Positions 1,464 to 41,087 of a stretch of DNA of 41,834 bases are shown here, in pieces. The notes under the pieces were generated by a model that searched no databases, was not told where the DNA came from, and saw only the letters and a program-made list of their open reading frames with translations. Origin of the DNA: Saprospiraceae bacterium (GTDB lineage Bacteria > Bacteroidota > Bacteroidia > Chitinophagales > Saprospiraceae); the NCBI GenBank assembly GCA_041685645.1, contig JAWLFI010000001.1, positions 1-41,834 on the forward strand. The letters run 5' to 3'. Position numbers and translations under genes: made by a program. Position 1 is the stretch's first letter. The number at the start of each line of letters is the position of its first letter.

Positions 1464-3713
<2,250 letters not shown>

Positions 3714-4249: not shown

Positions 4250-4860
4250 TTTTTTTTACCGCAAAGACGCAGAGTTCGCAGAGTTGATCTGATGTATAGG
4301 ATTGAAATTATGCGCCCTTTGTAAGACTTTCTCCTTCATCGACCGACGAATCTGCGAAGCGAAGGCGGATGAACTTTATCCTTGAATTTATTTCACGCAA
4401 AGCCGCGAAGGCTCGAAGCGCTTATTTCGCGGCGAATAGCGATACATTCACGGGAGTTACTTTTTCCATTATCCTTTTTCCTTTCTCCTTGAAATTATAT
4501 CACGCAAAGGCGCGAAGGCGCAAAGCACTTATTTTGCGGCTAATGGCTATACATTCAGGGGAGTTACTTTTTCCATTATCCTTTTTCCTTTCTCCTTGAA
4601 ATTATATCACGCAAAGCCGCGAAGACGCAAAGCGAAATTTATGTACTTTAAGATGCATATGCCATCTGCTCCTTCACCCTTCATCGACCGACGGAGCTGC
4701 GAAGCGAAGGCGGATGAACTTTATCCTTGATTTTATTTCACGCAAAGCCGCGAAGACGCAAAGCGAAATTTAAGTACTTTAAGATGCATCTGCCTACTTT
4801 TTCCGTCTTCGATCGACCTTTCTCCTTGATTTCATTTCACGGCAATGCACAAATGCACAC
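4250..4860. repeat. Composite tandem/interspersed repeat block built around CACGCAAAG(C/G)CGCGAAG(G/A)CGCAAAGC
   Basis: The core TTTCTCCTTGA..T(A/T)TCACGCAAAGSCGCGAAGRCGCAAAGC occurs about 5 times. There is a ~108-bp near-perfect tandem duplication (about 4444-4551 and 4552-4640). The module CATCGACCGACGRAKCTGCGAAGCGAAGGCGGATGAACTTTATCCTTGA appears twice (about 4337-4385 and 4681-4729). The module GCGAAATTTAWGTACTTTAAGATGCAT also appears twice (about 4632-4658 and 4762-4788). Confidence 0.8.
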
Positions 4861-7498: not shown

Positions 7499-7512
7499 TT
7501 TGACGCAAATCA
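7499..7512. promoter_or_regulatory. Candidate FNR/FixK-type box TTGACgcaaATCAC upstream of ccoI
   Basis: It matches 8 of the 10 defined positions of TTGAT-N4-ATCAA. It lies about 50 bp upstream of the -7-like box at 7558-7565. Confidence 0.3.
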
Positions 7513-7557: not shown

Positions 7558-7565
7558 TACTTTTG
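7558..7565 (+). promoter_or_regulatory. Bacteroidota-type -7 promoter element TACTTTTG (TAnnTTTG)
   Basis: A perfect TAnnTTTG lies 20 nt upstream of the ccoI ATG. Confidence 0.4.
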
Positions 7566-9966: not shown

Positions 9967-10110
9967 ATCCCCCCTTTTTTGTTTAAAAACTGAGGAGAAT
10001 CATACCTCAATATGACATTCATCATACAATGATTGCAGATGCCATTTTATCTTGCAAACGATTACAATAGTGCGTTTGACCACCTCAGTGGAGAGCGAAA
10101 AGTATTTGTT

Positions 10111-10269
10111 ATGGAAGTCATTTTTTTACTCATTGGATTAGGGATATTAGTAGCGGGCGGCTTTTTAGTGGCCTTTATTTGGGCCATGCGATCCGGTCAG
10201 TACGACGACGACTATACGCCATCGGTTCGCATCCTTTGGGATGATTCAAAGAAAAAGTCAAAGAAATAA
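10111..10269 (+). CDS. ccoS: cbb3 oxidase maturation protein CcoS/FixS
   Basis: MEVIFLLIGLGILVAGGFLVAFIWAMRSGQYDD is the classic CcoS single TM helix plus the SGQ(Y/F)DD motif. The upstream 26 codons of the tracked ORF (from 10033) do not look like coding sequence. Confidence 0.85.
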   Translation: MEVIFLLIGLGILVAGGFLVAFIWAMRSGQYDDDYTPSVRILWDDSKKKSKK

Positions 10270-10275
10270 TACGTT

Positions 10276-12408
10276 ATGGGAAAAATGGAGTCATTCAGTT
10301 ATGACAACAAAATCGTAAAGTGGTTTGCCTATGCCACTGTGATTTGGGGTATTGTTGGGATGTTAGTTGGCGTTTGGGCGGCATTTGAATTGGTCTTTCC
10401 CGGTTTAAATATGGCCATAGCAGAACTCACCTTTGGGCGTATCCGACCGCTGCACACCAATGCCGTCATTTTTGCTTTTGTGGGCAACGGGATATTCATG
10501 GGTGTTTACCATTCCCTACAGAGATTATTAAAAGCTCGCATGTATAGTGATAGGCTCTCCCTATTTCACTTTTGGGGATGGCAGGCGATTATTTTGGCAG
10601 CGGCCATAACCTTGCCTCTTGGAATCACGACCAGCCATGAATACGCAGAATTAGAATGGCCCATTAATATTGCCATTGCAGTGGTTTGGGTGGCTTTTGG
10701 CATCAATATGTTTGGGACGATTTTACGGAGAAGAGAAAATCACCTGTATGTAGCGATTTGGTTTTATATCGCTACCTGGGTCACTGTCACGATATTGCAT
10801 ATTTTTAATAATTTGTCGATTCCCTATTCCATGATGCAAAGTATTCCCGTTTTGGCAGGAGTACAAGATGCTTTGGTGCAGTGGTGGTATGGGCACAACG
10901 CCGTGGCCTTCTTTTTAACGACGCCCTATTTGGGCTTGATGTATTACTATCTACCCAAGGCCGCCAATCGGCCGATATTCTCATACAAGTTATCGATCAT
11001 TCACTTTTGGGCTTTGATCTTCATATATATCTGGGCCGGTCCACACCACTTACTGTACACTTCTCTGCCGGACTGGGCACAATCGTTGGGTACTGTGTTT
11101 TCGATAATGTTAATTGCTCCTTCCTGGGGTGGTATGCTCAATGGACTATTGACCCTCCGCGGCGCCTGGGATCGCGTCAGGCAAGATCCTATTTTGAAAT
11201 TCATGGTGGTTGCCGTTAGTGCATACGGCATGTCCACATTGGAGGGGCCTCTACTTTCTATCAAATCGATCAATGCCATCAGTCACTATACTGATTGGAC
11301 GGTAGCTCATGTTCACGTGGGCACTTTGGGCTGGAATGGGATGTTGACCTTTGGTATTTTGTACTGGTTGGTACCCAGAATTTACAATACGAAGTTATAC
11401 TCCATGAAATGGGCCAATGTTCATTTTTGGATATCCACTTTAGGGGTGTTGTTTTATGCCATTCCACTATACTGGGCGGGCTGGACGCAGAGCATGATGT
11501 GGAAGCAATTTGAGCCGGACGGATTTTTGACGTATCCCAACTTTTTGGAGACCGTAACTCAGATTCTGCCCATGTATTTTTTGCGGGCTATTGGCGGCAC
11601 CATTTATCTGGCGGGCGCAATTTTAATGGGAGTCAATCTCTACAGGACGGTAAAGAGCGGTCACTGTGCCGATGATGAAGCGGCCGAAGCTCCGGCTCTG
11701 ACTCCTCACAAACGAGAAAAAGGAGAGTATTGGCACAAGTGGATTGAGCGACGTCCGATACAAATGCTAATTGGTGCTACGATTGTAGTTGTGATCGGCG
11801 GGTTAGTAGAAATTTTCCCGATGCTTATTATCGATAAAAACGTGCCTAAAATCGCCTCTGTGCAGCCTTATACTCCGCTGGAGTTAGAGGGACGAGATTT
11901 ATACATTCGGGAAGGTTGCGTGGGTTGTCATTCGCAGATGGTTCGGCCCTTCCGGTCCGAAACAGAGAGATATGGCGACTACTCAAAATCCGGTGAGTTT
12001 ATTTACGATCGCCCTTTCCTCTGGGGATCGAAGCGAACCGGCCCGGATTTGCATCGGGAGGGAGAAAAGTATTCCGACAGCTGGCACTATTATCACATGT
12101 ATGAACCTCAATCGATGTCACCCGGATCTATCATGCCTCCTTATCCCTGGTTGATAGAGGATGACCTAAGCACGAAGTACACGGCAGCAAAGATTAAAGT
12201 CTTGCAATCACTAAACACCCCATACCCCAAAGGCTATGCTGATCAGGCAGTAAAGGACCTGGAAGAACAAGCCAGGGAAGTGGCGGAAAATCTCCGCGCA
12301 GAAGGAGTGGAGCAAGAAGATCTGGAGAAAAAGGAGATCGTTGCCTTGATTGCCTATTTACAGCGGCTGGGAACAGATATTAAGCCCAAACCTATTGTAG
12401 AAGAGTAA
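10276..12408 (+). CDS. ccoN: cbb3-type cytochrome c oxidase, fused subunit I-II (CcoN-CcoO)
   Basis: The N-terminal ~480 aa carry WWYGHNAVAFF, AGPHHL and HVHVGTLGW (haem/CuB ligands). The C-terminal ~220 aa carry the CcoO TM anchor, CVGCH (CxxCH) and RPFLWGSKRTGPDL. Confidence 0.95.
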   Translation: MGKMESFSYDNKIVKWFAYATVIWGIVGMLVGVWAAFELVFPGLNMAIAELTFGRIRPLHTNAVIFAFVGNGIFMGVYHSLQRLLKARMYSDRLSLFHFWGWQAIILAAAITLPLGITTSHEYAELEWPINIAIAVVWVAFGINMFGTILRRRENHLYVAIWFYIATWVTVTILHIFNNLSIPYSMMQSIPVLAGVQDALVQWWYGHNAVAFFLTTPYLGLMYYYLPKAANRPIFSYKLSIIHFWALIFIYIWAGPHHLLYTSLPDWAQSLGTVFSIMLIAPSWGGMLNGLLTLRGAWDRVRQDPILKFMVVAVSAYGMSTLEGPLLSIKSINAISHYTDWTVAHVHVGTLGWNGMLTFGILYWLVPRIYNTKLYSMKWANVHFWISTLGVLFYAIPLYWAGWTQSMMWKQFEPDGFLTYPNFLETVTQILPMYFLRAIGGTIYLAGAILMGVNLYRTVKSGHCADDEAAEAPALTPHKREKGEYWHKWIERRPIQMLIGATIVVVIGGLVEIFPMLIIDKNVPKIASVQPYTPLELEGRDLYIREGCVGCHSQMVRPFRSETERYGDYSKSGEFIYDRPFLWGSKRTGPDLHREGEKYSDSWHYYHMYEPQSMSPGSIMPPYPWLIEDDLSTKYTAAKIKVLQSLNTPYPKGYADQAVKDLEEQAREVAENLRAEGVEQEDLEKKEIVALIAYLQRLGTDIKPKPIVEE

Positions 12409-12418
12409 AAGAAGAATT

Positions 12419-12613
12419 ATGTACAAATATATTTTAGAAACTGCCGAGAGTATCAACTGGATGGCCTTGTTTTCCCTCCTTACTTTTTTGATTGTTTTTG
12501 TGTTGGCGGTGATTTTAGTGTTTCGACGCAGCGATGAGCACATCCGTCATATGGCGTCTTTGCCTTTAGATGATACGGAACCGGAAATAAAGGATGAAAA
12601 AGAGAAAAAATAA
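12419..12613 (+). CDS. ccoQ: CcoQ/FixQ-like small cbb3 subunit
   Basis: 64 aa with a single TM helix (WMALFSLLTFLIVFVLAVILVF). Its position between ccoNO and ccoP fits CcoQ. Confidence 0.7.
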   Translation: MYKYILETAESINWMALFSLLTFLIVFVLAVILVFRRSDEHIRHMASLPLDDTEPEIKDEKEKK

Positions 12614-12617
12614 ACCC

Positions 12618-13547
12618 ATGAAAAAGCATATTTACTTATTTGTTTTGTGTGTCTTTTTTCTTTTGCCCGGAGCGAAAGCAGAGAGTAGCATGATGGTTGG
12701 ACTCGAGGAAGTAGAATGGCTGAATGAGGCCATGACACTTCTTCTTCAAAACATCGTTGTGGTATTTGCAGGTATCATTATTATTGGAGCCCTGCTGATT
12801 ATGTATCGAACATTGATGGTTATTTTGGAGCAGGAGAAGATTCAGGCCATGGAGGAAGCCGGCATCAAAGTAAAAGACCCGAGCGAAATAGAAAAAGGTC
12901 CTTCAGCGTGGGAAAAAATGATGAAATGGTTATCCGGGGCCGTTCCCGTTTCCAGGGAGAAAGAGGTGGATCTTGGACACAGTTTTGATGGAATTCGCGA
13001 GTTAGACAATCGGCTTCCCCCCTGGTGGCTGGGACTGTTTTACGGCAGTATTATTTTTGCCGTGGTGTACATGTATTATTATCACTTTTCCGGGAACGAA
13101 TGGAGTTCCAGGGGAGAGTATAGAGAAGAGATGGCAGAGGCAGAGCGAAGTAAACGCCTGTATCGCGTGCAAATGGCAGATGTCGTGGACGAAGAAAGCG
13201 TGGAATTTCTAACCGACGAACTGGCGCTGGAGCAAGGCAATGTTATCTTCCAATCAAATTGTGCAACCTGTCACGGTGAAAATGGAGAAGGAGGGGTAGG
13301 TCCCAATTTGACGGATCCGTATTGGATTCATGGGGGAACCATTAATGACGTGTTTTCAGTTATTAAATACGGAGTTGCTGAAAAGGGGATGGTCTCATGG
13401 CAATCTCAGATCCGTCCTGCAGCGATGGAGAAGGTTGCGAGTTTTATTATGACTTTACAGGGCACAGAACCCGAGAACGCCAAGGAGAAAGAAGGTCAGT
13501 ATCACGATCCCGAGATCATCACAAGAGAAGACCTGGAAGAGGAATAA
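12618..13547 (+). CDS. ccoP: cbb3 oxidase subunit III (CcoP/FixP), only one CxxCH visible
   Basis: FixP_N-type motif FDGIRELDNRLPPWW, a TM helix, and one cytochrome c domain (CATCHGENGEGGVGPNLTD ... M). ATG 12618 lies 5 nt after the ccoQ stop; the tracked start at 12594 would overlap ccoQ. Confidence 0.88.
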   Translation: MKKHIYLFVLCVFFLLPGAKAESSMMVGLEEVEWLNEAMTLLLQNIVVVFAGIIIIGALLIMYRTLMVILEQEKIQAMEEAGIKVKDPSEIEKGPSAWEKMMKWLSGAVPVSREKEVDLGHSFDGIRELDNRLPPWWLGLFYGSIIFAVVYMYYYHFSGNEWSSRGEYREEMAEAERSKRLYRVQMADVVDEESVEFLTDELALEQGNVIFQSNCATCHGENGEGGVGPNLTDPYWIHGGTINDVFSVIKYGVAEKGMVSWQSQIRPAAMEKVASFIMTLQGTEPENAKEKEGQYHDPEIITREDLEEE

Positions 13548-13571
13548 ATAGCTCAGTCAAGAGCAATAAAC

Positions 13572-14993
13572 ATGTCAGAAGAACGACGAGAAAACGATCC
13601 GGAGAACAGCTTTAGAGATAGCATTAGCTCTGTAGACCAGCAGGGAAAACGCATTTGGATTTACCCCAAAATGCCCCAGGGGCGTTTTTATGATTATCGC
13701 AAATGGTTGTCCTATGTGCTTCTCATTATTTTATTTGGCATGCCATGGATTAAAATCAATGGCGATCCCTTTATGCAGTTCGATATTCTGAACCGCCAGT
13801 TTATCGTATTTGGAGTGCATTTTGTTCCTCAGGATTTTCACTTGTTCGTCATCGCCATGCTCATTTTCATGATTTTCATCGTTTTATTTACGGTGATTTT
13901 TGGCCGGGTATTTTGCGGTTGGGTATGCCCACAGACCATTTTTATGGAGATGGTCTACCGTCGCATTGAATATGCGATTGAGGGGGACTACACAGCTCAA
14001 AGGCGATTGAACAAAGCGCCCTGGACGAGGGATAAGATATGGAAAAAGACACTAAAGCAAAGCTTGTTTTTTGGGATTGCTTTTTTGGTGGGAAACACCT
14101 TTCTCGCCTATATCATCGGCGTAGATGACCTAATGGAAATTATCCGCTCACCCATTGCAGAACATTGGGAGGGCTTTAGTGCGATGCTCATTTTTTCCCT
14201 GATTTTTTACTTTGTGTTCTCTCAATTGCGAGAACAGGTCTGTACCACGATATGTCCTTACGGGCGACTACAGGGCGTCATGCTGGATAAGCAATCTCTG
14301 GCTGTATATTACGATTGGATCAGGGGCGAGCCCCGGGGCAGGATCAAACGCAATGCTACTGAACTGGAGTTGGAGCAACAAGGCGATTGCATCGATTGCG
14401 GTTTGTGTGTTAAAGTGTGTCCGACGGGGATTGATATCAGAAATGGCATTCAATTGGAATGCGTGAATTGCACGGCTTGCATGGATGCTTGTGATGAGGT
14501 AATGGTAAAAGTGGATCGCCCCAAAGGGCTAATTCGCATTGACTCTCATGCCGGCATCGAATCGAAACAACACAAGCTGATTAATCCGCGATCTATTGCG
14601 TATAGTTTAGTACTTACGCTTTTGATTGGCATTGAATTGTTTTTGTTTGTCTCCAGATCAGATGTCGAAACGGTGTTTTTGAGAACTCCGGGCAAATTGT
14701 ATTACGAGAGAGAGGCCGGGGTCATAGAAAACCTCTATAATTATCAGCTGATCAATAAGACAGACCGGGAAATGCCTGTGGAATTCGTTTTACAGAACAA
14801 GGAGGGAGAAATTGAATACGTAGGGCAAGAGCCCACCACCATACCCAATGGCACAGTGAATGGATCGGTATTTGTCAAGATTTCCCGAGATGAGCTAGAC
14901 AATAGAAAGACTGAGATTTACATTCATGTGGTATCAGAAGGAGAGGTTCTGGAGCGATTGAACACTAACTTTTTGGGTCCCATAAAAAAATAA
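13572..14993 (+). CDS. ccoG: cbb3 oxidase accessory 4Fe-4S protein CcoG/FixG
   Basis: CGWVCPQT motif, ferredoxin-type clusters CIDCGLCVKVCP and CVNCTACMDAC, and several TM helices. Confidence 0.92.
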   Translation: MSEERRENDPENSFRDSISSVDQQGKRIWIYPKMPQGRFYDYRKWLSYVLLIILFGMPWIKINGDPFMQFDILNRQFIVFGVHFVPQDFHLFVIAMLIFMIFIVLFTVIFGRVFCGWVCPQTIFMEMVYRRIEYAIEGDYTAQRRLNKAPWTRDKIWKKTLKQSLFFGIAFLVGNTFLAYIIGVDDLMEIIRSPIAEHWEGFSAMLIFSLIFYFVFSQLREQVCTTICPYGRLQGVMLDKQSLAVYYDWIRGEPRGRIKRNATELELEQQGDCIDCGLCVKVCPTGIDIRNGIQLECVNCTACMDACDEVMVKVDRPKGLIRIDSHAGIESKQHKLINPRSIAYSLVLTLLIGIELFLFVSRSDVETVFLRTPGKLYYEREAGVIENLYNYQLINKTDREMPVEFVLQNKEGEIEYVGQEPTTIPNGTVNGSVFVKISRDELDNRKTEIYIHVVSEGEVLERLNTNFLGPIKK

Positions 14994-14997
14994 TACG

Positions 14998-15441
14998 ATG
15001 AAATTACACTGGGGCAATGCTCTCTTTCTCTTTTTTGTAGGCTATATCGGTCTATTGGGTTTTACTTTGTATCAATCCACTCAAGTTAATCACAGCCTGG
15101 TGTCTCAGGATTATTACGCTCAGGATCTGGCGTATCAAGAGCAGTATGATAAGGTGGTGAACTACAAGTCCCAAAAAGACAGAGTCACCTTCAACTACAA
15201 TAAAGATACACGAGAATTGATCTTGAGCGGAAATCAAATTGCTCAACACGCGAAAGGTCAACTCACTTGTTACCACCCGGTTTCTGCGGTGGAAGATGTG
15301 AAGTTCGACTTTGATTTAAAGTCCAGTGAACTCATTCCATTGAGTCTGGAGCATTTGCCGAGAGGTCGCTGGGTCGTACAAATAGATTACGCCCAAGGAG
15401 AAGAGAGCTATTATCACGAAGAGGAAATTTTTATCCAATAA
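14998..15441 (+). CDS. FixH-family protein (CcoH-position gene)
   Basis: 147 aa with an N-terminal TM anchor and an SQDYYAQDLAYQ motif typical of Bacteroidota FixH-like proteins. It starts 5 nt after ccoG. Confidence 0.7.
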   Translation: MKLHWGNALFLFFVGYIGLLGFTLYQSTQVNHSLVSQDYYAQDLAYQEQYDKVVNYKSQKDRVTFNYNKDTRELILSGNQIAQHAKGQLTCYHPVSAVEDVKFDFDLKSSELIPLSLEHLPRGRWVVQIDYAQGEESYYHEEEIFIQ

Positions 15442-15443
15442 AT

Positions 15444-16142
15444 ATGTTTTCCGTGCCCTTACTACTTGGTTTTTTCGGATCAGCACACTGCCTGGGAATG
15501 TGTGGCCCTCTGGCTATGGGCGTATCGCAAGTGGGGTCTTCTCAGTGGAAACACCTATTGGGTAGGTCTATCTTGTACAATCTGGGACGAGCGACAACCT
15601 ATGCCGGATTAGGATGGCTGGTGGGCGGTCTGGCTCAGCAATTTTTGACGAGCGGATGGCAGCAGCAATTGGCATTCATTACAGGTGGTCTTTTCATTCT
15701 GCTATTTCTCTTGTCTATTACGCCCGATAGTCTTCTTCAGCGATTTTCCTGGTACAGAAGCGGTCTCCGCCATTGGCAAAAGCATTTGGGGCAATGGATG
15801 CATCGGTGGGGGAGCTCCTCCTCATTTATTCTGGGTCTTTTGAATGGCCTGCTTCCCTGTGGCTTAGTGTATATCGCATTGGCCGGGTCTTTAGCGTTTT
15901 CTGCGGCCTGGCAGAGTGCTACTTTTATGTTTGTATTCGGCCTTGGCACCCTGCCTGCCTTGTTTTTTCTCATGACCGGAGCGAATCAACTGCCTTTGTT
16001 ACGTCATCGCTATTTTCGAAAAGCATTGCCTGCGGTTCAGCTCTTGATGGGAATTTTTCTCATTTACAGAGGGCTACAGGTGCAGTTACCTTTTGACTTG
16101 AGTTGGTATTTAACCGTCGATGATCCCGCGATGTGTCACTAA
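15444..16142 (+). CDS. DsbD_2/TauE-like integral membrane protein at the end of the cco cluster
   Basis: 232 aa, polytopic, with an N-terminal GSAHCLGMCGP motif. It starts 3 nt after the FixH-like gene. Confidence 0.75.
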   Translation: MFSVPLLLGFFGSAHCLGMCGPLAMGVSQVGSSQWKHLLGRSILYNLGRATTYAGLGWLVGGLAQQFLTSGWQQQLAFITGGLFILLFLLSITPDSLLQRFSWYRSGLRHWQKHLGQWMHRWGSSSSFILGLLNGLLPCGLVYIALAGSLAFSAAWQSATFMFVFGLGTLPALFFLMTGANQLPLLRHRYFRKALPAVQLLMGIFLIYRGLQVQLPFDLSWYLTVDDPAMCH

Positions 16143-16437: not shown

Positions 16438-17529
16438 TCACAATACGGGAACGAAATCTTTTTTTCTATTCCCGGAGTTCGCGACCATTTGGGAGGAGTC
16501 AGGAGAAAATACATCTTTTTGTGGAAGATATACAGTGACGAAATTTGAGGCTGCGCAATCTTTAGCATGCCCCGGCTTACCACTGAGTTCGCTTGATTCC
16601 GGGGGCGCATTCATGAGCAAAAAGTCTGAATCATGCATCGCTCTGGTAAGGATGCCGGTCCCGGAAAATTTTATTGAGAGTTTCTGTTTTTCTAGTTGTT
16701 TGAGGGCAGGGCATTGCTCTAGGAGTTGTCTGCGAGTTCGATGAGAGTAAATCACGATCTTGAGATCGAACCATTGCGAAAGTTGCTGTATGGATTTCAC
16801 CGTTGATGAGCCAACAGATGACTCGCGGATGAGCCAATGAGCATTGACGGAGTGTTGGAATTCCACCTGATCGGGAAGGAGCAGCAATGGATGCCGGAGA
16901 TGGGAATAGACCTTTCCCCAGTCACTCATGCCCTCTGCCCAATCTTCTTGGTCAATTATAATAGCGCAATAGTTGTTTTCTCGCTCTATTCGAATGATAT
17001 GATCCCTGAAGTTTGCCGAACTTTTAGATTGTGCGATTATCGGACGGCTCAAAATCTGCCCCATGGCTTCTTCGCTAGCCGCCGCAATATAATTTTGCAA
17101 TTTCCTCTCTGCCTCAAGGGATGTTTCCAACGGCTCGGTGCATAGGGATTGCAGCTCCAGGCAACTATCGTTCTGATTCACGAGTTGATGAGCATAGAGG
17201 AAAGTAGAAACCACCTTTTCCGGCTTTTTGTAGGGAACGGCCACGCAAGGCCATTCTCCATATCGGTAGTATTGAAGGAGGTCCAAAATCGCTTGTTTTA
17301 GTACATGGTTCGTCGCACCTTCTTCCGAAAAGGAATAACTTTTCGAGTGAATTCTCAAAGTGGGCACTGTGTGTATATTGGCTGCCAAAATTTCATCGAC
17401 ATCTCTGATCTCACATATTGACAGAGGTAGACGAGCTCTTTGAATGACGCGGTCCAGCACTCTCTTTATATGCAAAAAAGTGGTAGAGGGGGCTCCGTAA
17501 AGCGATATGGGACTCCGGCCAGACGACAC
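16438..17529 (-). CDS. Hypothetical protein: Cys-less thioredoxin_3-like N-terminus plus two degenerate USP-like (Rossmann-like) halves
   Basis: Long minus-strand ORF. The N-terminus ISLYGAPSTTFLHIKRVL...HTVPTLRI resembles small thioredoxin-fold proteins, but the CxxC position reads APST. The tracked start at 17565 is a TTG that overlaps the CBS gene by 32 nt. A GTG at 17529 lies 5 nt after the CBS stop. The start is uncertain. Confidence 0.6.
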   Translation of the reverse strand: MSSGRSPISLYGAPSTTFLHIKRVLDRVIQRARLPLSICEIRDVDEILAANIHTVPTLRIHSKSYSFSEEGATNHVLKQAILDLLQYYRYGEWPCVAVPYKKPEKVVSTFLYAHQLVNQNDSCLELQSLCTEPLETSLEAERKLQNYIAAASEEAMGQILSRPIIAQSKSSANFRDHIIRIERENNYCAIIIDQEDWAEGMSDWGKVYSHLRHPLLLLPDQVEFQHSVNAHWLIRESSVGSSTVKSIQQLSQWFDLKIVIYSHRTRRQLLEQCPALKQLEKQKLSIKFSGTGILTRAMHDSDFLLMNAPPESSELSGKPGHAKDCAASNFVTVYLPQKDVFSPDSSQMVANSGNRKKDFVPVL

Positions 17530-17533
17530 TGCA

Positions 17534-17950
17534 TTAATCTTTGGATAGCTCGTCAATGATGTCAAATGTGGTTATGATGCCCACTAATTTGTCGCCTTCT
17601 ACCACGGGAATGGCATGAAACATATTCACTTTAAAAACCTCCAGAGCTACGCTGATTTTATCCGAGGGTTCCAATTTGGCCAGTCCGGTCGTCATAATCT
17701 CCTTCACTCGATGCGTCTTTAGGCGAAATGCTTCCAATTCTTCCTCCCTTCTGGTCTTAGCAAAACCCTTTCTAAAGAAAAGAAAGTCGGTTTTACTCAC
17801 CAAGCCGACTAATTTTCCGGCATCCAATACGGGAATGTGATGAAAACTATTCTCTTCGAAAACTTGCTCCACTTTAGTCAATGGGTCGTCAATACTCAAT
17901 GTGGTTAATTGAGTTCGCATGAGTTCTTTTACTGGTCTTTGAATATCCAT
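17534..17950 (-). CDS. Stand-alone CBS-pair (Bateman) domain protein
   Basis: 138 aa made of two CBS repeats (HHIPVLDAGKLVGLVSKTDF and HAIPVVEGDKLVGIITTFDI) with no other domain. Confidence 0.88.
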   Translation of the reverse strand: MDIQRPVKELMRTQLTTLSIDDPLTKVEQVFEENSFHHIPVLDAGKLVGLVSKTDFLFFRKGFAKTRREEELEAFRLKTHRVKEIMTTGLAKLEPSDKISVALEVFKVNMFHAIPVVEGDKLVGIITTFDIIDELSKD

Positions 17951-17989
17951 AACTTTTTATGTGAAGATAGGCTGCAAGTCCCTGCCGGG

Positions 17990-18026
17990 AAATGATTTCT
18001 ATCACATGAAAAAATGATTTCTATCA
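17990..18026. promoter_or_regulatory. Tandem Crp/Fnr-type boxes TGAT-TTCT-ATCA in the divergent CBS / kinase promoter region
   Basis: An identical 15-mer AAATGATTTCTATCA occurs at 17990-18004 and 18012-18026 (22-bp period). Each copy contains the palindromic core TGATnnnnATCA. Confidence 0.5.
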
Positions 18027-18061
18027 ATGTTTTATCTTCGCCATGTAAAACAACTCTTTTC

Positions 18062-19288
18062 ATGCCGAAAGTCAATGAATTTTATGCCCAACGCCTCGAA
18101 GCTGTAATCAACACAGCCATCGATGGCATTATTACTATCAATAAAGCCGGCAAGATCGAGTCCGCAAACCCCGCCGCTCAAAAACTTTTTGGCTACTCAT
18201 CCAGTGAAATGATCGGTCAGAATATAAGCTTGTTGATGCCGGAACCTCATCGCTCTCAACATGACGAGTATATCAATCACTATGAAGAAACCGGAGAAAA
18301 GAAAATTATAGGTATTGGCCGGGAAGTAAAAGGAAAGAGGAAAGATGGAACGCTTTTCCCCTTTCGATTGGCTGTGAGTGAGGTGAATTTGGGCCCCAGG
18401 AAAATCTTTACCGGGATCATCCACGATCTCACCGATATCAATGCAGCCCGGCAAGAGATCATCAGCATGAATCTTCAATTGGAGCAGAAAGTTGAAGAGC
18501 GCACCAATGAATTGGAAAGTGTGGTCAATCAACTCCTGAAAGCCAATCGACAACTGGAGGAAAAGGAACAGAAACTAAAACAGGCTCTGGAAGTGGAAAA
18601 GGAACTCAATGATCTAAAATCCAGATTCCTGAGCACGGCGTCACACGAATTTCGCACGCCCTTGAGCACCATTTTGTCCTCTGCGTCTATCATTGAAAAA
18701 TATGAGGCGGAGGCACAGCAGGACAGACGCTTGCGACATACCAAAAGGATTCGGGACAGCGTCAATCACCTCAACGCTATTTTAAATGATTTTCTGTCGA
18801 TCAGCAAACTGGAAGATGGGGATTATCAGCCGCAATGGCAAGCGGTAGATTTGTTTTCATTTCTGGAACAGTTGAAAGAACAAGTGTCCGAGATCTATTC
18901 ATCCGAAAATGGCGGATTAATTCTAATGGAGGCCGAGGTAGATCAGATCATTACTGACCCGCACATCCTCAAGAATATTTTAATCAATTTGCTGTCCAAT
19001 GCCATTAAATACAGCGACTCAACACAAGTGCGTTGTTCTGTCAGGGAGGAAGATAACCACTGGATCATCGCAGTCGCTGATCAGGGCATGGGGATTCCCC
19101 CCTCCGAGCAAAAGCACCTCTTCGAACGCTTTTTCAGAGCGTCTAATGCCGAGAATATTCAAGGGACGGGTTTGGGATTGAGTATTGTGTTTGAATACGT
19201 AAAACAGTTGGGGGGTGAAATCTATTTTGAGAGCGAAGAAAATGTGGGATCTACTTTTTTTGTGGAACTTCCGAAGAGAATATTATGA
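18062..19288 (+). CDS. FixL-like haem-PAS sensor histidine kinase (soluble)
   Basis: The PAS domain carries LMPEPHRSQHDEYINHY...IIGIGREVKGKRKDGTLFPFRLAVSEV...FTGIIHDLT, which I recall as near-identical in pattern to the rhizobial FixL haem domain. HisKA H-box SHEFRTPL, N-box LLSNAIKYS, G-boxes DQGMGI and GTGLGLSIV. The alternative ATG at 18014 overlaps box 2. Confidence 0.88.
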   Translation: MPKVNEFYAQRLEAVINTAIDGIITINKAGKIESANPAAQKLFGYSSSEMIGQNISLLMPEPHRSQHDEYINHYEETGEKKIIGIGREVKGKRKDGTLFPFRLAVSEVNLGPRKIFTGIIHDLTDINAARQEIISMNLQLEQKVEERTNELESVVNQLLKANRQLEEKEQKLKQALEVEKELNDLKSRFLSTASHEFRTPLSTILSSASIIEKYEAEAQQDRRLRHTKRIRDSVNHLNAILNDFLSISKLEDGDYQPQWQAVDLFSFLEQLKEQVSEIYSSENGGLILMEAEVDQIITDPHILKNILINLLSNAIKYSDSTQVRCSVREEDNHWIIAVADQGMGIPPSEQKHLFERFFRASNAENIQGTGLGLSIVFEYVKQLGGEIYFESEENVGSTFFVELPKRIL

Positions 19289-20328
19289 AAAAAATACTGG
19301 TGATTGAGGATCAAACTGCGGTCCGGGAAAATATTTGTGAAATTCTCGAGCTCGCCGGCTATGAAGCCCATGCCGCGGCGGATGGAAAGCTCGGCTGTGA
19401 ACAGGCGATCCATCAGCGGCCCGATCTCATTCTCTGCGATGTAATGATGCCCAAATTGGATGGCTTTGGCGTCTTGAAAATTTTGCGCCAAAAACCGGAA
19501 ACACAAAGCATCCCCCTCATTTTCCTGACGGCAAAGGTCGAGCCCTCTGATCTGCGCAAAGGCATGGGCCTGGGCGCGGACGACTATATTACCAAACCCT
19601 TTGACGATACCGAGTTGCTGGAAGCTATCGAGCTGCGGCTGCGCAAGCGCGATGTGGAAATGGAGTCCATTCAGGCCTACAAGTCCAATATGGGAAACTT
19701 GCACTCTGAGGCGCGCGAGCAGGGTAGTCTGAATCAATTGATAGCGATGGGAACGGATGAGTGTTGGGCAAAGGGCGAGCAGATGTGGCAACTGCACCAA
19801 CATCCCGTCGGCATGTATTATATCACCAAAGGGTACGTTAAAGAATCTCTCCATCATAGCTCGGGCAAGGAGCTCCTCATCCGTTGGGTTGGCCCGGGTG
19901 AATTTATCGGCTACGCACCACTTTTATCCGAAAATCCCTACAGTTCCACTGCCACGGCGATGGAAGCCATTCAGGCAAAATTTATCAATGCGAAATCACT
20001 TTCAGCCATGATGTTCGAAAATCGGGATATCGCCCTGTATTTTCTCAGGCAGACCGTGGCCCACTCCGAACAATTGAATCGCTGGACGCTGGATCACGCC
20101 TACAGTTCGGTCCGACGGCGGGTGGCTCAGGCTCTTTTGTACCTCCATCAGCAGGGGGATTCTTCGGAGGTCGTGGTTGGACGGGACGATTTGGCGGCTT
20201 TGGCCGGGACCGCTAAGGAAACGACCATTCGCACACTCTCGGACTTCAAGTCGGAGGGCAGCATTGAGATCGAGGGGGGAGCGATTCATTTGTTACAGCC
20301 GGAAGCATTGGCGGATATCGAGTATTAA
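19285..20328 (+). CDS. Response regulator: receiver domain fused to a Crp/Fnr-type effector-binding barrel and HTH
   Basis: REC motifs: VIEDQ, LILCDVMMPKLDG, FLTAK, ITKPF. These are followed by a cNMP-binding-like barrel (GEFIGYAPLL) and a Crp-type HTH (LAALAGTAKETTIRTLSDF). Its start overlaps the kinase stop (ATGA). Confidence 0.9.
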   Translation: MKKILVIEDQTAVRENICEILELAGYEAHAAADGKLGCEQAIHQRPDLILCDVMMPKLDGFGVLKILRQKPETQSIPLIFLTAKVEPSDLRKGMGLGADDYITKPFDDTELLEAIELRLRKRDVEMESIQAYKSNMGNLHSEAREQGSLNQLIAMGTDECWAKGEQMWQLHQHPVGMYYITKGYVKESLHHSSGKELLIRWVGPGEFIGYAPLLSENPYSSTATAMEAIQAKFINAKSLSAMMFENRDIALYFLRQTVAHSEQLNRWTLDHAYSSVRRRVAQALLYLHQQGDSSEVVVGRDDLAALAGTAKETTIRTLSDFKSEGSIEIEGGAIHLLQPEALADIEY

Positions 20329-20342
20329 TATATTTTGGGTTT

Positions 20343-20540
20343 GGGCGCGTCCCCACAGCGGCAGAATCCGCCGACAGCGGCTTCTGAGGGCAGATAAGGC
20401 CGCTGTGGGGTCGCTATGCTTCGGGGCTCTCCGCCACCCGGCGGATCGGCTCCGCGCTGACTGCGTCGCGCGGATCTTCCTCGCCCCACCCCGGGCGGGG
20501 CTCGTCACCCACTCCGCAGCGCTCGCGCAATGGACGGAAT
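20343..20540. repeat. GC-rich intergenic repeat, family 1, copy b
   Basis: It starts GGGCGCGTCCCC. It has a perfect 12-bp stem CCCCACAGCGGC / GCCGCTGTGGGG (20351-20362 / 20399-20410), the core GGGGTCGCTATGCTTCG (20407-20423) and the 3' motif GCAGCGCTCGCGCAA (20516-20530). Confidence 0.7.
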
Positions 20541-20699
20541 CCTGAATTTACGGCTTTTTAGGGTGACTGCAAGGGAAAAGAGGATCATGCCACATATACA
20601 GAAGATGAAAATGAAAAATAATTAAAACTGTGCAATATGACAGTGCAGGCCGATAGAATACGAGAGAGTCCGAAAAATACAATATTTTGGGGATAGAGG

Positions 20700-20850
20700 G
20701 CTTTGTGTCAGCGCTGTGGAAGGCCACGGCGCAAGCGCGCCGTGGGTCCAAGCCCTCCCCTCCGGCTAATGGGAGGGGAGGGTGAAGGACCGATAGCCTG
20801 AAACATAGCGCCACCGGCTCGCCCTGAGGGCGAGCCGGTGGGACACCCAA
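20700..20850. repeat. GC-rich hairpin-module repeat, family 2, copy b (three consecutive perfect hairpins)
   Basis: The stems are CCACGGCGC/GCGCCGTGG (20724-20732 / 20737-20745), CCCTCCCCTCC/GGAGGGGAGGG (20753-20763 / 20772-20782) and CACCGGCTCGCCC/GGGCGAGCCGGTG (20812-20824 / 20828-20840). They are followed by GACACCCAAATTAAAAT. Confidence 0.7.
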
Positions 20851-20938
20851 ATTAAAATTAACTATAAATTAAAATATTAAAAAATATTTTCAAAAAAACT
20901 ATGGTTTACCTTTCGATTCCAATTAAATTGTATTAATA

Positions 20939-20952
20939 TTGATTATAATCAA
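20939..20952. promoter_or_regulatory. Perfect 14-bp palindrome TTGATTATAATCAA (exact TTGAT-N4-ATCAA) just upstream of the AddA-like gene
   Basis: The sequence is self-complementary over all 14 positions. It ends 16 nt before ATG 20968 and overlaps a TAATATTG (-7-like) element. Confidence 0.35.
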
Positions 20953-20967
20953 CGACACCCCTCTGCT

Positions 20968-23900
20968 ATGCTGCATGTTTATAAGGCTTCTGCCGGTTCC
21001 GGGAAAACCTTTCGATTGGTCTTGTTTTATCTCGACTTGTGCTTTCATCATCGGCATGAGCCCAATTACTTCAAGCATATTTTGGCGATGACATTTACCA
21101 ATGCTGCGACGGCGGAAATGAAAGATCGCATTCTAAGAGAACTCAAATATCTGTCGGAAGGGAGTGAAAAGGCTGAACACGCGGCTACTTTGCGAGAGAA
21201 TCACGGATTGAGTACAAAGGACTTGCAGCGGTCGGCCGCCGCGATTCTCCAGTCGATGATGGAGGACTATTCGGGCTTTGCAATTACCACAATTGATAGC
21301 TTTTTCCAGCGGATATTGCGCGTTTTTACTCGTGAAATTGGCCTGAATCAGGGCTATGAGGTGGAATTAGATACGGACAAAGTGCTGCAACGGGTGATGG
21401 ATGAATTATTAGCTGACCTTACAGAGGATAGTCCCGCTATGTATTGGATTGAGCACGTGTTGGAGGAGCGCTGGATGGAGGGAAAGAGCAATAATTTTCG
21501 TCGGGATTTATTGGAGCTGGGAGGTGAGTTGTTCAAGGAAGGCGTACATCAAAAGTTGGCACAGGAGGATGTGAGTGCGCTGCGAGAAAAGGGAAGAGAG
21601 GTGTATGCACAGATGGAAGAGATCGAGGCCGAGTTGGCGGCCATTCAAGATGAAGTAGAGGGTGTATTGTATCAGCACGACCTAGGGTTTGACGATTTTA
21701 GTCGCAAGAAAAGCAGTTTTGTGGGGACCTGGCTGAACACCTATTCAGATGTCTCTAAAATAATCAAAAACGGACCTGAGAGTTTTCGAAATATATTATC
21801 GAAAAACATTGATGAGGTCGATAGCTGGACTACAAAAACTGCACCTGCCGATACCGTGGGAAAAGTGGAGGCAGCTTCTGATGAGCTGAATCGCTTATTG
21901 AGAAAGACGGTGCAGTGGATCGATGAAAGATTGCCCATGTATTTTAGTTTATACCTTATTCGCAAGAAATATACATCTTATGGGTTTTTAGCCATTTTGA
22001 ACGAATATGTGCAGGCCTATTGCCAGCGGGAACAGAAAGTATTGTTATCCGACACCTCTGAAATGTTGAAAGAGGTCGTGCGTATTCAAATTATGCCTTT
22101 CTTTTACGAGCGCATCGGAGATCGGTACCACCACGTATTGTTAGATGAATTTCAAGACACTTCTACCTCGCAGTGGGAGGTGTTAGATGCCCTGGTGGAG
22201 GAATTGGTGGCAGCGGGAAACAAAGACTCATTGGTTGTGGGAGATGTGAAGCAGGCGATCTATCGGTGGCGGAATGGGAACTGGCAGATATTGCAGTTGG
22301 GCTTGCGACAGAAATACGAGCCTCTGGAGCAGTATCGGCCGGAACAACTGAAAAACAATTGGCGATCGAGGGAGGAGATCGTTGGGTTCAATAATGAACT
22401 CTATGGTGCACTGGCTGAGTTGGCCGAAGTGGAATTGGCGAATGCCTTTTCGCAGTACGGAGTAGATCAGGGAGGAGAAACTTCTATTATCGGCGATATA
22501 TTTGCAGGTCACGAGCAGGGCATTCACGAGAAAATGAAGGAAGCCAGAGCTGGCGGTTTTGTTTGTATCGATGGGTTTTTAGAGCCCAATAAGGATAGTG
22601 GTATAGAGAAGGAGGAGCAGGAGGTTTATTTTTTTGACTTGATCAGGGATCGTTTAGTTTCGCTCAAGAACCGGGGCTTTTCTCGTTCCGATATTTGTAT
22701 TTTGGTACGTCGGGGAAAAGAGGCTCTGGAAATATCTGAATATTTATTGGAATGGCAGAGAGAGGACCAGGACACTTTTACTTTCACCTCTCCCCAGGCT
22801 TTGGAATTGTCAAATTCATATATCGTTCAGGGTCTAATGGCCTTTTTCAAGCTGATGATAGGTCGCGAGGTGAAAGTGGCCTGGCTCGAGTGGGAACAGG
22901 CGGTAGAAAAACTACAGTGCGGGGGATTGAGTCGGGGTGTATTAGAGGAAATGATCCGGGATGCGCAAGCGCAATCCCTTTGGGAAATAGCGGAGCGAGT
23001 AGTGGTGGAGACCGAATGGTCAAAAATAGAGGCTGAACTTCCCTTCTTATTGGAGTTTCAGAATCAAATTTTACAATACGTCGATCAGGAGCAGGGGCAC
23101 CTTAGGGATTGGGTCGATTTTTATTACGACCGGGAGATTTTTAGGAGCTCGATTATTTTGCCAGAAAATCAGGATGCCATACGCGTCTCGACGATTCATA
23201 AATCCAAGGGAATGGAATACCCCGTGGTATTATTACCCTATATGGATATGGATATTACCTCTGTATCGAAAAGCGTAAATAAGACGATTATATGGGCAGA
23301 GCACTTTGCTCTTATGGGTCGGCAATGGTCCACTTACCCACTTGAATTTGGCCGGCATTTGGCGTATAGTACGTTATCAGAAGAGTTTTCACGGGAGTTT
23401 ATAGCCCAGTGGATTGACACTTTGAACTTGTGTTATGTCGCGACGACAAGACCCAGGGAGGAAGTGCATCTCTTTTTGAAGGAAGTGGAGCCACAAAAAC
23501 CTGTTAAATTATTGAGTCAACTCCTTTGGGACGCTTTGAATTCGGAGGGTGCGCAGGACATTCAGTCCGAGATGGGGCATAAGAGAATAGTTCGGGGAGT
23601 CCCCATGGAGAATCGCGTTAGGAAAGATGAGGAGGAAGATTATGATTCCATTGCTCTTCGGGAATACCGCGGGGCTCGACCTATACCGTCCATTTCAGAT
23701 CCCGGAGGAGGCTTGCAGGAAGAATCGGAGAACAACGCATTGAGCCGTGGGCGAAAATTGCACGAAATATTGGAGCGCGTGTACGACGAAGAGAGTTTGA
23801 ACCGATCCATAACGGCCGTCATAGAACAAGGGGTACTAGTTGAAGAGGAGCGCGAAACATATTTCGAGGCTTTGTCACCTCTTATGCATCACGACGAGAT

Positions 23901-24165
23901 TGGTCCTTTACTGGGTCTTAAAGAGGGGCGCATGGTGGAGCGCGAGTTATTGGTTCCGGGCAGTGTAATACAACGTCCGGACCGGGTCATTCGTCAGGAA
24001 AATCGCACCTTGGTTATTGATTTCAAAACCGGGAAGAAATATCCCGCCCACCGGGATCAAATCCGCAATTACATGAAGAGCCTGGTAGAGATGAAGGCAC
24101 CGACGGTGGAAGGATATCTGGTGTATATCGATGCCGTAGAGGTGGATCGCGTAGAATTATCTTAA
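20968..24165 (+). CDS. AddA-like UvrD/Rep-family helicase with a C-terminal PD-(D/E)XK nuclease domain
   Basis: 1065 aa. Walker A ASAGSGKT at the N-terminus, DEFQDTS (helicase motif II), VSTIHKSKGMEYP (motif V/VI region), and a C-terminal nuclease motif RPDRVI...LVIDFKTGKK. Confidence 0.88.
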   Translation: MLHVYKASAGSGKTFRLVLFYLDLCFHHRHEPNYFKHILAMTFTNAATAEMKDRILRELKYLSEGSEKAEHAATLRENHGLSTKDLQRSAAAILQSMMEDYSGFAITTIDSFFQRILRVFTREIGLNQGYEVELDTDKVLQRVMDELLADLTEDSPAMYWIEHVLEERWMEGKSNNFRRDLLELGGELFKEGVHQKLAQEDVSALREKGREVYAQMEEIEAELAAIQDEVEGVLYQHDLGFDDFSRKKSSFVGTWLNTYSDVSKIIKNGPESFRNILSKNIDEVDSWTTKTAPADTVGKVEAASDELNRLLRKTVQWIDERLPMYFSLYLIRKKYTSYGFLAILNEYVQAYCQREQKVLLSDTSEMLKEVVRIQIMPFFYERIGDRYHHVLLDEFQDTSTSQWEVLDALVEELVAAGNKDSLVVGDVKQAIYRWRNGNWQILQLGLRQKYEPLEQYRPEQLKNNWRSREEIVGFNNELYGALAELAEVELANAFSQYGVDQGGETSIIGDIFAGHEQGIHEKMKEARAGGFVCIDGFLEPNKDSGIEKEEQEVYFFDLIRDRLVSLKNRGFSRSDICILVRRGKEALEISEYLLEWQREDQDTFTFTSPQALELSNSYIVQGLMAFFKLMIGREVKVAWLEWEQAVEKLQCGGLSRGVLEEMIRDAQAQSLWEIAERVVVETEWSKIEAELPFLLEFQNQILQYVDQEQGHLRDWVDFYYDREIFRSSIILPENQDAIRVSTIHKSKGMEYPVVLLPYMDMDITSVSKSVNKTIIWAEHFALMGRQWSTYPLEFGRHLAYSTLSEEFSREFIAQWIDTLNLCYVATTRPREEVHLFLKEVEPQKPVKLLSQLLWDALNSEGAQDIQSEMGHKRIVRGVPMENRVRKDEEEDYDSIALREYRGARPIPSISDPGGGLQEESENNALSRGRKLHEILERVYDEESLNRSITAVIEQGVLVEEERETYFEALSPLMHHDEIGPLLGLKEGRMVERELLVPGSVIQRPDRVIRQENRTLVIDFKTGKKYPAHRDQIRNYMKSLVEMKAPTVEGYLVYIDAVEVDRVELS

Positions 24166-24187
24166 ATTTTATCAAAACGCAGAAAAT

Positions 24188-41037: not shown

Positions 41038-41087
41038 GTTAAGACTCGTTTTGATCAGAATCAATTAAACGGCAAAAAGTGAATACC

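Follow-up and report, generated by a model that had tools for sequence, protein, structure and literature searches.

The locus described here raises the question of how an oxygen signal might reach the genes of a cbb3-type oxidase in a member of the Bacteroidota, and whether two adjacent genes, encoding a histidine kinase with a FixL-type PAS domain and a response regulator ending in a Crp/Fnr module, could carry that signal in a single step. The pair lies in a stretch of 41,834 nucleotides from a Saprospiraceae bacterium (GenBank assembly GCA_041685645.1, contig JAWLFI010000001.1, positions 1 to 41,834 of the forward strand), termed the window below, and a first-pass annotation made from the sequence had taken it for a possibly collapsed form of the rhizobial FixL-FixJ-FixK cascade. 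The best reading of the locus, supported in silico and in our judgement probably correct as a whole, is a one-step route from a haem-PAS kinase through a Crp-type regulator to the cbb3 oxidase (cco) genes, because the sensor is of the FixL type, the regulator is a fusion of a receiver (REC) domain with a Crp module, the pair is syntenic with the cco cluster, and boxes resembling class II activator sites stand upstream of ccoS-ccoNO and beside the operon of the pair. Domain architecture, key residues and synteny were observed in the analysis, as were the boxes with their conservation, geometry and enrichment, and the regulator would be the protein that binds them.

Organization of the Gene Pair

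Two plus-strand open reading frames (ORFs) were confirmed, 18014..19288 (424 amino acids) and 19285..20328 (347 amino acids), which overlap in an ATGA at 19285-19288 as the first-pass annotation had described. The start of the kinase at 18014 did not hold up, being the product of choosing the longest possible ORF. The gene calls of relatives with regulators 90 and 56% identical to this one give a kinase of 408 amino acids, equivalent to ATG 18062 here, and in the 90% relative (locus L082) the frame from the upstream ATG meets a stop codon after ten codons, so the kinase is taken to start at 18062. We read the arrangement, with more confidence than doubt, as a predicted operon of two translationally coupled genes, which would encode a cytoplasmic two-component system for sensing oxygen. 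The domains expected of the two proteins were all found by Pfam, namely PAS, HisKA and HATPase_c in the kinase and Response_reg, cNMP_binding and HTH_Crp_2 in the regulator. The features of the pair are as follows.

18062..19288, plus strand: soluble sensor histidine kinase of 408 amino acids, with a predicted haem-PAS domain, a coiled linker, HisKA and HATPase_c (Pfam, PDB matches, gene calls of relatives)
18092..18436, plus strand: FixL-type PAS domain (ungapped alignment to PDB codes 1dp6 and 1d06)
18644..18646, plus strand: H-box phospho-acceptor His in SHEFRTPL (alignment to HK853, PDB code 2c2a)
19285..20328, plus strand: response regulator of 347 amino acids, with REC (residues 1-120), a helical linker, a Crp/Fnr β-barrel (about 157-235), a dimerization helix (247-273) and a helix-turn-helix (276-324) (Pfam, AlphaFold 2 model, Foldseek)
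19438..19440, plus strand: phospho-acceptor Asp52, accompanied by T82 (19528-30) and K104 (19594-96), invariant in 76 homologues
20209..20235, plus strand: recognition helix TAKETTIRT, with E312 and R316 invariant and I315 nearly so

The Sensor Domain and the Transmitter of the Kinase

The three Pfam domains of the kinase score above the curated cut-offs (PAS 66 bits, HisKA 52 and HATPase_c 97), and no hydrophobic segment was found at its N terminus; the protein is therefore read as soluble. The PAS domain aligns without a single gap over 114-118 residues to the haem domains of Bradyrhizobium FixL (BjFixL, 1dp6; E 2.4e-32, 47% identity) and of RmFixL (1d06; E 7.9e-32, 49% identity), and next among solved PAS matches come further haem-PAS proteins, EcDOS and DosP, at 2e-18. 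The earlier recognition of a FixL haem domain, including its proximal His at 18260-18262, is thus borne out by the alignment. The BjFixL numbering was anchored by two mutant entries carried in the same alignment, 2cmn (YISAY, R206A) and 1y28 (IGIGA, R220A), which places the residues of the haem pocket as follows.

18260-18262 (CAT): His, equivalent to BjFixL His200, the proximal haem ligand
18320-18322: Arg (in IGIGR), equivalent to BjFixL Arg220, the O2-binding switch
18305-10 and 18368-70: residues identical to BjFixL Ile215, Ile216 and Leu236
18278-18280: His (in YINHY) in place of BjFixL Arg206, which binds a propionate and belongs to the FG-loop switch
18302-04: Lys in place of BjFixL His214
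18374-76: Val in place of BjFixL Ile238

Of the FixL residues singled out at the outset, the His200 and Arg220 equivalents are kept and the Arg206 equivalent is not, the latter position being occupied by N, R or H in the close PAS subgroup. Arg220 gives FixL its O2-specific switch, as established for BjFixL. The functional arginine is the R of IGIGR and not the Arg in the motif GKR(K/R)DG to which the first-pass annotation had pointed.

The domain is predicted to bind haem, O2 would be the signal with the polarity known from FixL, and the kinase would pass its phosphoryl group to the regulator. The loss of one switch residue (R206) is what can be said for a PAS domain that binds no haem, a generic one for another ligand or for none, whose likeness to FixL reflects common ancestry only. 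We consider this very improbable in view of the 118-residue ungapped match at E 2e-32, of next-best solved matches that are themselves haem-PAS proteins, and of the proximal His, which is present in 15 of the 17 partner kinases found in related loci even where identity falls to ~25-30%.

The transmitter (residues 191-421) has a different affinity. Its best solved relative is HK853 (E 2e-34) compared with ~1e-10 for chimeras containing the FixL core, the kinase core resembles HK853, PhoR and WalK, and the NCBIfam FixL equivalog model (NF041777) reaches 174.7 bits against a cut-off of 850, with the best-matching stretch being the PAS domain only. By these matches the transmitter is assigned to the HK853/PhoR class and is not FixL-like.

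The Regulator as a Receiver Fused to a Crp/Fnr Module

The receiver described in the first-pass annotation is intact, with Response_reg scoring 99.7 bits and the residues E8, D9, D52, T82 and K104 invariant in the 76 homologues. Its direct fusion to a Crp/Fnr barrel and helix-turn-helix is likewise confirmed by cNMP_binding at 46.7 bits (cut-off 27.5), HTH_Crp_2 at 51.3 bits (cut-off 27) and the structural matches of the predicted model. The AlphaFold 2 model has a predicted local distance difference test (pLDDT) score of 87.7, and in Foldseek its Crp part superposes on MtbCRP, GlxR and CAP with TM scores of 0.80-0.88 and a root mean square deviation of ~2 Å; no solved chain in that search covers the receiver and the Crp part together. 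Helix α5 of the receiver runs on to residue 138 in the model, with a low-confidence hinge at 132-139 preceding the Crp module. Among solved sequences the C-terminal 200 residues match best a Porphyromonas Crp/Fnr protein (PDB code 2gau, E 3.9e-15).

The closest solved relatives of the receiver are of the OmpR/PhoB class (RpaA, PhoP and PhoB, E 1e-24 to 1e-22), the best NCBIfam matches are PhoB, MtrA and RpaB, and FixJ is absent among the 60 best solved matches, so that the FixJ receiver suggested earlier is replaced by one of another class. An origin in which a FixJ-type receiver was literally joined to a FixK gene, leaving the system as the evolutionary remnant of a collapsed FixLJ-FixK cascade, would draw support from the same functional logic and from the 47-49% identity of the PAS domain to rhizobial FixL; it is nevertheless hardly probable, with the receiver of the OmpR/PhoB class, the kinase core closer to HK853/PhoR (2e-34) than to the FixL core (~1e-10), the FixL equivalog score at 175 of the 850 bits needed, and the closest solved relative of the Crp part in Porphyromonas rather than a rhizobial FixK. 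The literal FixJ-FixK fusion was accordingly rejected on the classes of receiver and transmitter. What stands of the collapsed cascade is a functional analogy, and what falls is a history through fusion of fixJ and fixK; the functional likeness appears to have been reached by domain shuffling. The pair is also placed outside the FixL, FixJ and FixK orthologous groups, because it does not reach the cut-off of the full-length FixL model, its kinase core is not that of FixL, Arg206 is not kept and the partner of the kinase is not of the FixJ type.

In the Crp module the residues that bind the cyclic nucleotide (cNMP) phosphate are lost, the position of CRP Arg82 being a nearly invariant Tyr219 and that of Glu72 a Tyr or variable. 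In agreement with the first-pass annotation, an FNR-type N-terminal Cys cluster for [4Fe-4S] was found neither in the regulator nor as a conserved feature of the 76 homologues, and the receiver occupies the N terminus instead. Because the cNMP-binding Arg and the FNR cysteines are both missing, binding of cNMP or an Fe-S cluster by the barrel is unlikely, and the receiver is the obvious input. In the recognition helix, the invariance of E312 and R316 agrees with the conserved TGA-N6-TCA core of the DNA boxes described below.

A separate feature of the receiver is Cys51, adjacent to Asp52 (19435-19440 for the two, in LILCDVMMP), which is invariant in all 76 aligned homologues and is the only invariant Cys. 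Lying beside the active site, this thiol could make the receiver sensitive to redox state as well.

Family Distribution and Synteny with the cbb3 Cluster

All 120 best hits of the regulator in a database clustered at 90% identity share the three-domain architecture at ~346 amino acids, and those with names come from Saprospiraceae, Lewinellaceae or Bacteroidota and bear generic names only ("response regulator," "CRP-like cAMP-binding protein"). A library clustered at 50% identity contains 2,239 representatives at E <= 1e-30, with 138 of the best 150 matching over the full length in a single stretch. The pair is thus neither unique nor rare and belongs to a large Bacteroidota family of hundreds to ~2,000 clusters at 50% identity.

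Full-length regulators were located at 22 loci in GTDB species genomes, all of them Bacteroidota, from taxa that include Saprospiraceae, Chitinophagaceae, Niabella, Ohtaekwangia, Cyclobacteriaceae, Crocinitomix, Salinimicrobium, Aquimarina, Winogradskyella and Marixanthomonas. A histidine kinase lies directly upstream in 17 of the 22, the 4-bp kinase-regulator overlap recurs in L002, L004, L015 and L017, and the N-terminal FixL-like PAS domain with its proximal His is found in the 15 partner kinases mentioned above. Two PAS subgroups can be distinguished. The FixL-proper one ("IIGIGRE," 88-112 bits) comprises the window, L001, L006 and L013, and the divergent one ("RxMGxG[R/M]D," 37-56 bits, proximal His kept) comprises most partner kinases (L002, L004, L005, L007, L008, L011, L012 and L014-L018). 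The FG-loop Met of the divergent subgroup recalls the six-coordinate His/Met haem of EcDOS, and ligand chemistry may differ between the subgroups.

The genes of the conserved block lie in the window as listed here.

7585-9966: ccoI
10111..16142, plus strand: cco cluster, beginning with ccoS (10111-10269), a ccoNO fusion (10276-12408), ccoQ (12419-12613) and ccoP (ends at 13547)
Remainder of the cco cluster, plus strand: ccoG (13572-14993), ccoH (14998-15441) and DsbD_2 (15444-16142) (NCBIfam, Pfam)
17534..17950, minus strand: gene for a CBS-pair protein, divergent from the kinase and a predicted target (Pfam CBS, box geometry)

The last gene of the cluster, DsbD_2, ends at 16142, which is 1.9 kb before the kinase as had been stated. 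The relatives with 90 and 56% regulator identity conserve the whole block, consisting of ccoI-S-NO-Q-P-G-H-DsbD_2, opposite-strand genes for a protein with no assigned family and for the CBS protein, the kinase and the regulator. The proposed linkage of the pair to cbb3 is therefore upheld by synteny in these relatives but is not universal, as discussed below. CBS genes near the pair are also seen in L001, L011 and L013.

DNA Boxes in the Window

The pattern TGAT-N4-ATCA occurs six times in the window compared with 1.5 expected. The boxes with a recognizable promoter context are these.

17993..18004: box 1, TGATTTCTATCA, 23 nt upstream of the minus-strand -7-like element TATCTTCA (17962-17969) serving the CBS gene
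18015..18026: box 2, TGATTTCTATCA, 22 bp from box 1 and 6 nt upstream of the -7-like element TATCTTCG (18033-18040) before the kinase
10013..10024, plus strand: ccoS box, TGACATTCATCA, followed after 23 nt by the -7-like element TATCTTGC (10048-10055), upstream of ccoS
7501..7512, plus strand: candidate ccoI box, TGACGCAAATCA, 45 nt upstream of a perfect -7 element TACTTTTG (7558-7565), a class-I-like position

Boxes 1 and 2 are identical and lie in the intergenic region between the CBS gene and the kinase, where 17993-18026 is read as a regulatory element. Both boxes and their 22-bp spacing are kept in the 56% lineage (L084) though the flanks have diverged, box 1 is also present in L082, and the ccoS box reads TGACATTCATCA in L082 and TGATAACCGTCA in L084 at the same 23-nt spacing. 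The -7 box recognized by σA in Bacteroidota is TAnnTTTG. In the window, L082 and L084 alike, the ccoS box and the minus-strand box 1 each stand exactly 23 nt before a TAnnTT element resembling that -7 box, a geometry that would put the center of the box at about -41, the class II position, and class II geometry implies activation. The informative pattern is thus the 12-mer core together with a fixed distance to the -7 element.

The tandem 22-bp arrangement recurs in L084 and in L006, the latter with TGAG half-sites, and L013 also has a box in the CBS-kinase intergenic region. Between box 2 and the -7-like element there are 6 nt in the window and 7 nt in L084. A role for box 2 as a class II activator site of the kinase promoter was considered and rejected, there being no TA-NN-TT element 23 nt downstream and only the -7-like element 6 nt away; box 2 is most likely an autoregulatory site, possibly a negative one here, though this is uncertain.

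Two perfect FNR-type palindromes elsewhere in the window, TTGATTATAATCAA (20939-20952), which is 16 bp upstream of a UvrD/PD-(D/E)XK helicase-nuclease gene (20968), and TTGATCAGAATCAA (41051-41064), just past an ORF ending at 41037, were also noted. For neither is there a -7 element at the 23-nt distance.

Boxes across Bacteroidota and the Predicted Regulon

A strict pattern, TGAY-N4-RTCA followed after 22-24 nt by TAnnTT, was searched in the 22 loci (337 kb) with shuffled controls. It gave 42 sites compared with 1.5±1.2 in the shuffles (maximum 5), and when the spacing was varied from 10 to 40 nt, 33 sites fell at 23 nt with at most 5 at any other value. Eight control Bacteroidota loci without the regulator (164 kb) contained one bidirectional site, in L023. 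The consensus extends to (A/C)TGAY-N4-RTCAT, with a flanking base unlike that of FNR (T) or CRP (G). In 9 of 20 loci a strict box lies between -250 and +30 relative to the start of the kinase, where the background is 7% (P 4e-6), and neither the window nor any of the 22 loci was found to contain a second Crp-family gene. The boxes are linked to the operon of the pair because of these two results. Class II sites of the TGA-N6-TCA type are conserved and enriched around the gene, and the regulator is the protein predicted to bind them.

The genes downstream of the sites encode Usp (8 of 35), BON, CBS, YtxH, FixS/ccoS, Hsp20, PEP synthase (PpsA), thioredoxin and dodecin proteins and, in L018, the kinase itself; boxes stand upstream of ccoS or ccoI in L002, L004, L006, L009, L017 and L018. 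The predicted regulon is broader than cco and looks like one of the hypoxia/dormancy type. In Flavobacterium psychrophilum, O2 limitation strongly induces a cbb3 operon with hemN, the regulator being unnamed (PMC9723704), a physiological result that agrees with the one-step route. A small PAS-domain gene of that organism, THC0290_0456, falls in co-expression cluster C52 together with the hypoxia-induced cbb3 operon, and the promoter printed for it contains TGATAATTATCA (PMC9723704, supplementary file 3). The box may therefore operate in Flavobacterium too.

The composition of the regulon bears on the nature of the signal. The sensor might bind haem and report NO, CO or the redox state of the haem iron, or its polarity might be reversed with the kinase on when liganded. 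Sensing of NO, CO or haem-iron redox state has been argued for DosS and DosT, and the regulon predicted here (Usp, Hsp20, CBS) is similar to that of mycobacterial DosR, a regulon that is also NO/CO-responsive; the His at the Arg206 position and the Val at position 238 point the same way. We regard such a signal as quite improbable, since Arg220 is kept along with the equivalents of Ile215, Ile216 and Leu236, the class II geometry implies activation, and the targets include a high-affinity oxidase of a kind induced by O2 limitation in a flavobacterium (PMC9723704).

A different question is which protein occupies the boxes. Several observations weigh against the one-step route, and some of them concern binding. 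Other Crp/Fnr paralogues in Bacteroidota genomes could bind the same boxes, several loci from Chitinophagia and Cytophagia have no strict-pattern sites, and the cco cluster is within 10 kb of the pair in only 6 of the 22 loci. The canonical 14-mer TTGAT-N4-ATCAA, allowing at most 2 mismatches, is not enriched in the window (43 compared with 39.9 expected) and is not consistently found upstream of the kinases in distant loci. At the kinase promoter the 6 nt between box 2 and the -7-like element fit repression better than activation, and the spacing of 23-24 nt in L018 and L006, which suggests positive autoregulation there, differs from that in the window. On the side of the sensor, the equivalent of Arg206, part of the FixL switch, is His and the position varies across the family, and the divergent PAS domain of most family members has a less certain ligand.

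The binding-related observations can be assembled into an explanation in which the haem-PAS/REC-Crp system is real but a stand-alone Crp/Fnr paralogue elsewhere in the genome binds the TGAY-N4-RTCA boxes, the regulator having another site and regulon and its proximity to cco being mere association. Boxes of the Crp/Fnr type are generic, cco adjacency is limited to the six loci, some pair-bearing loci lack strict sites, and the regulator-less control L023 has one. We judge this explanation unlikely, as the 337 kb of loci and the window contain no other Crp-family gene, the sites are ~10-fold clustered around the regulator relative to the control loci and abut its own operon in the 9 of 20 loci, and the recognition helix is nearly invariant family-wide, which fits a single conserved motif.

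Proposed Mechanism

In the one-step route favored here, O2 on the haem, held by the Arg220 equivalent, would keep the kinase off by analogy with FixL. At low O2 the deoxy form would autophosphorylate on the H-box His (18644-46), and the phosphoryl group would pass from this His to Asp52 of the regulator, where phosphorylation would substitute for cAMP or an Fe-S cluster as the activating input of the Crp module. The phosphorylated REC-Crp dimer would then bind (A/C)TGAY-N4-RTCAT boxes 23 nt before the -7 element and activate transcription in the class II manner. Predicted targets in the window are ccoS-ccoNOQPGH and the divergent CBS operon, and probably ccoI through its distal box and the operon of the pair through box 2; genes for Usp, BON, YtxH, Hsp20, PpsA and thioredoxin proteins follow this architecture in other Bacteroidota and would be controlled alike. 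The conserved boxes suggest that, in many Bacteroidota, the pair directly turns on stress genes and the high-affinity cbb3 oxidase when oxygen is low.

Other Features Surrounding the Operon

An ORF of 375 amino acids on the minus strand (16438-17565), which overlaps the CBS gene at the end of the latter, has conserved counterparts of 340-372 amino acids in relatives; it is probably cotranscribed with the CBS gene and a likely member of the predicted hypoxia regulon. Neither its product nor a 165-amino acid protein encoded upstream of ccoI has a match in Pfam or NCBIfam.

Downstream of the regulator, an intergenic region of 640 bp (20328-20968) is unusually GC-rich, with several hairpin-forming stretches and an imperfect 31-nt inverted repeat (20347-20414), and in relatives a minus-strand ORF of 65 amino acids is called in the equivalent region. 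An AddAB-like helicase/nuclease pair (20968-27064) follows, placed between the regulator and MarR/TonB-receptor genes in the window and in the 90% relative. It is absent from the 56% lineage (L084-L086), where MarR comes directly after the regulator, and the AddAB-like pair has been inserted or lost beside the operon.

Upstream of the cco cluster are a fragment of a SulP/STAS sulfate permease gene (6-965, plus strand) and a gene for a KatG-type catalase-peroxidase (1464-3707, minus strand), and no boxes with promoter geometry were seen near either. A non-coding array (4333-4860) of about five degenerate direct repeats, with units of 99-131 bp and the core TTTCACGCAAAGCCGCGAAG, lies within the 1.4 kb that separate katG from an M1 peptidase gene. 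Rfam gave no match in the window, the repeat array included.

Relation to Known Regulatory Systems

The closest functional parallel is the FixL-FixJ-FixK system of Bradyrhizobium, Sinorhizobium and Caulobacter. The two share a homologous haem-PAS domain (47-49% identity) in which the proximal His and Arg220 are retained, the final regulator in each case is a cofactor-free Crp/Fnr type acting on TGA-N6-TCA boxes, as predicted for the present one, and the targets include cbb3 genes (fixNOQP/ccoNOQP). The systems differ in that two proteins are present here compared with three in the rhizobial cascade, with the partner of the kinase being REC-cNMP_binding-HTH_Crp_2 and not a REC-LuxR/NarL protein of the FixJ type. 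The receiver resembles the OmpR/PhoB and not the FixJ/NarL class, and the transmitter is HK853/PhoR-like. Control of the Crp module would be post-translational and exerted by the fused receiver, in place of transcriptional control of fixK. The kinase has no Arg206, the box carries A/C instead of T at its flanking position, and the system resides in Bacteroidota with no link to nitrogen fixation.

The DosS/DosT-DosR system of Mycobacterium resembles the pair in joining a haem gas-sensing kinase to one response regulator that commands a hypoxia/dormancy regulon, and the DosR regulon is rich in Usp, Hsp20/alpha-crystallin and CBS proteins. However, its sensing is through a GAF-haem domain, its output is of the NarL/LuxR type, and motif and promoter geometry are unrelated. 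With Escherichia coli FNR and CRP the C-terminal part shares the fold (TM 0.8-0.88), and the sites predicted for it are likewise palindromic, with TGA-N6-TCA at the core and a center ~41 bp before the start site; in contrast, there are no [4Fe-4S] cysteines here, Tyr219 takes the place of the cNMP-binding Arg, an N-terminal receiver would supply the input, and the promoter context is of the Bacteroidota -33/-7 type. The Porphyromonas gingivalis Crp/Fnr protein 2gau, a structural genomics entry from the same phylum and the closest solved relative of the C-terminal part, has no receiver domain and no known function.

No characterized REC-Crp regulator or Bacteroidota haem-PAS/FixL kinase was found in the literature searched, which agrees with the earlier statement that no characterized REC-Crp oxygen regulator was known from this phylum, and a paper on the CRP/FNR meta-regulon does not treat receiver fusions. 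RgzAB of Flavobacterium johnsoniae was considered as a related system and set aside as an unrelated GAF/Hpt system. The architecture itself is already in databases under generic names.

No oxygen-sensing regulator is described for aerobic Bacteroidota in the searchable literature, despite their abundance in soil, on marine particles, in biofilms and in fish disease. The pair is a concrete, testable candidate for which a DNA motif and a regulon are predicted and the promoter geometry is fixed, and it is carried by cultivable strains such as Winogradskyella thalassocola DSM 15363 and Salinimicrobium nanhaiense J15B81-2. If the one-step route is true, it would reveal a new mode of control of the Crp/Fnr fold by a fused receiver, a new class of response-regulator output with a defined physiological role, and a clear example of the FixL sensor module being rewired convergently. 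More tentatively, and falling somewhat short of an even chance, the pair may serve aerobic Bacteroidota (Saprospiria, Chitinophagia, Cytophagia and Flavobacteriia) as their master hypoxia switch, with receiver phosphorylation standing in for cAMP or Fe-S as the allosteric activator of a Crp-fold protein; it would directly drive cbb3 and a DosR-like dormancy regulon (Usp, Hsp20, BON, YtxH and CBS) in one step from O2 to promoter, through boxes at the fixed 23-nt distance from the -7 element, as an independent solution convergent with FixLJ-FixK and DosST-DosR.

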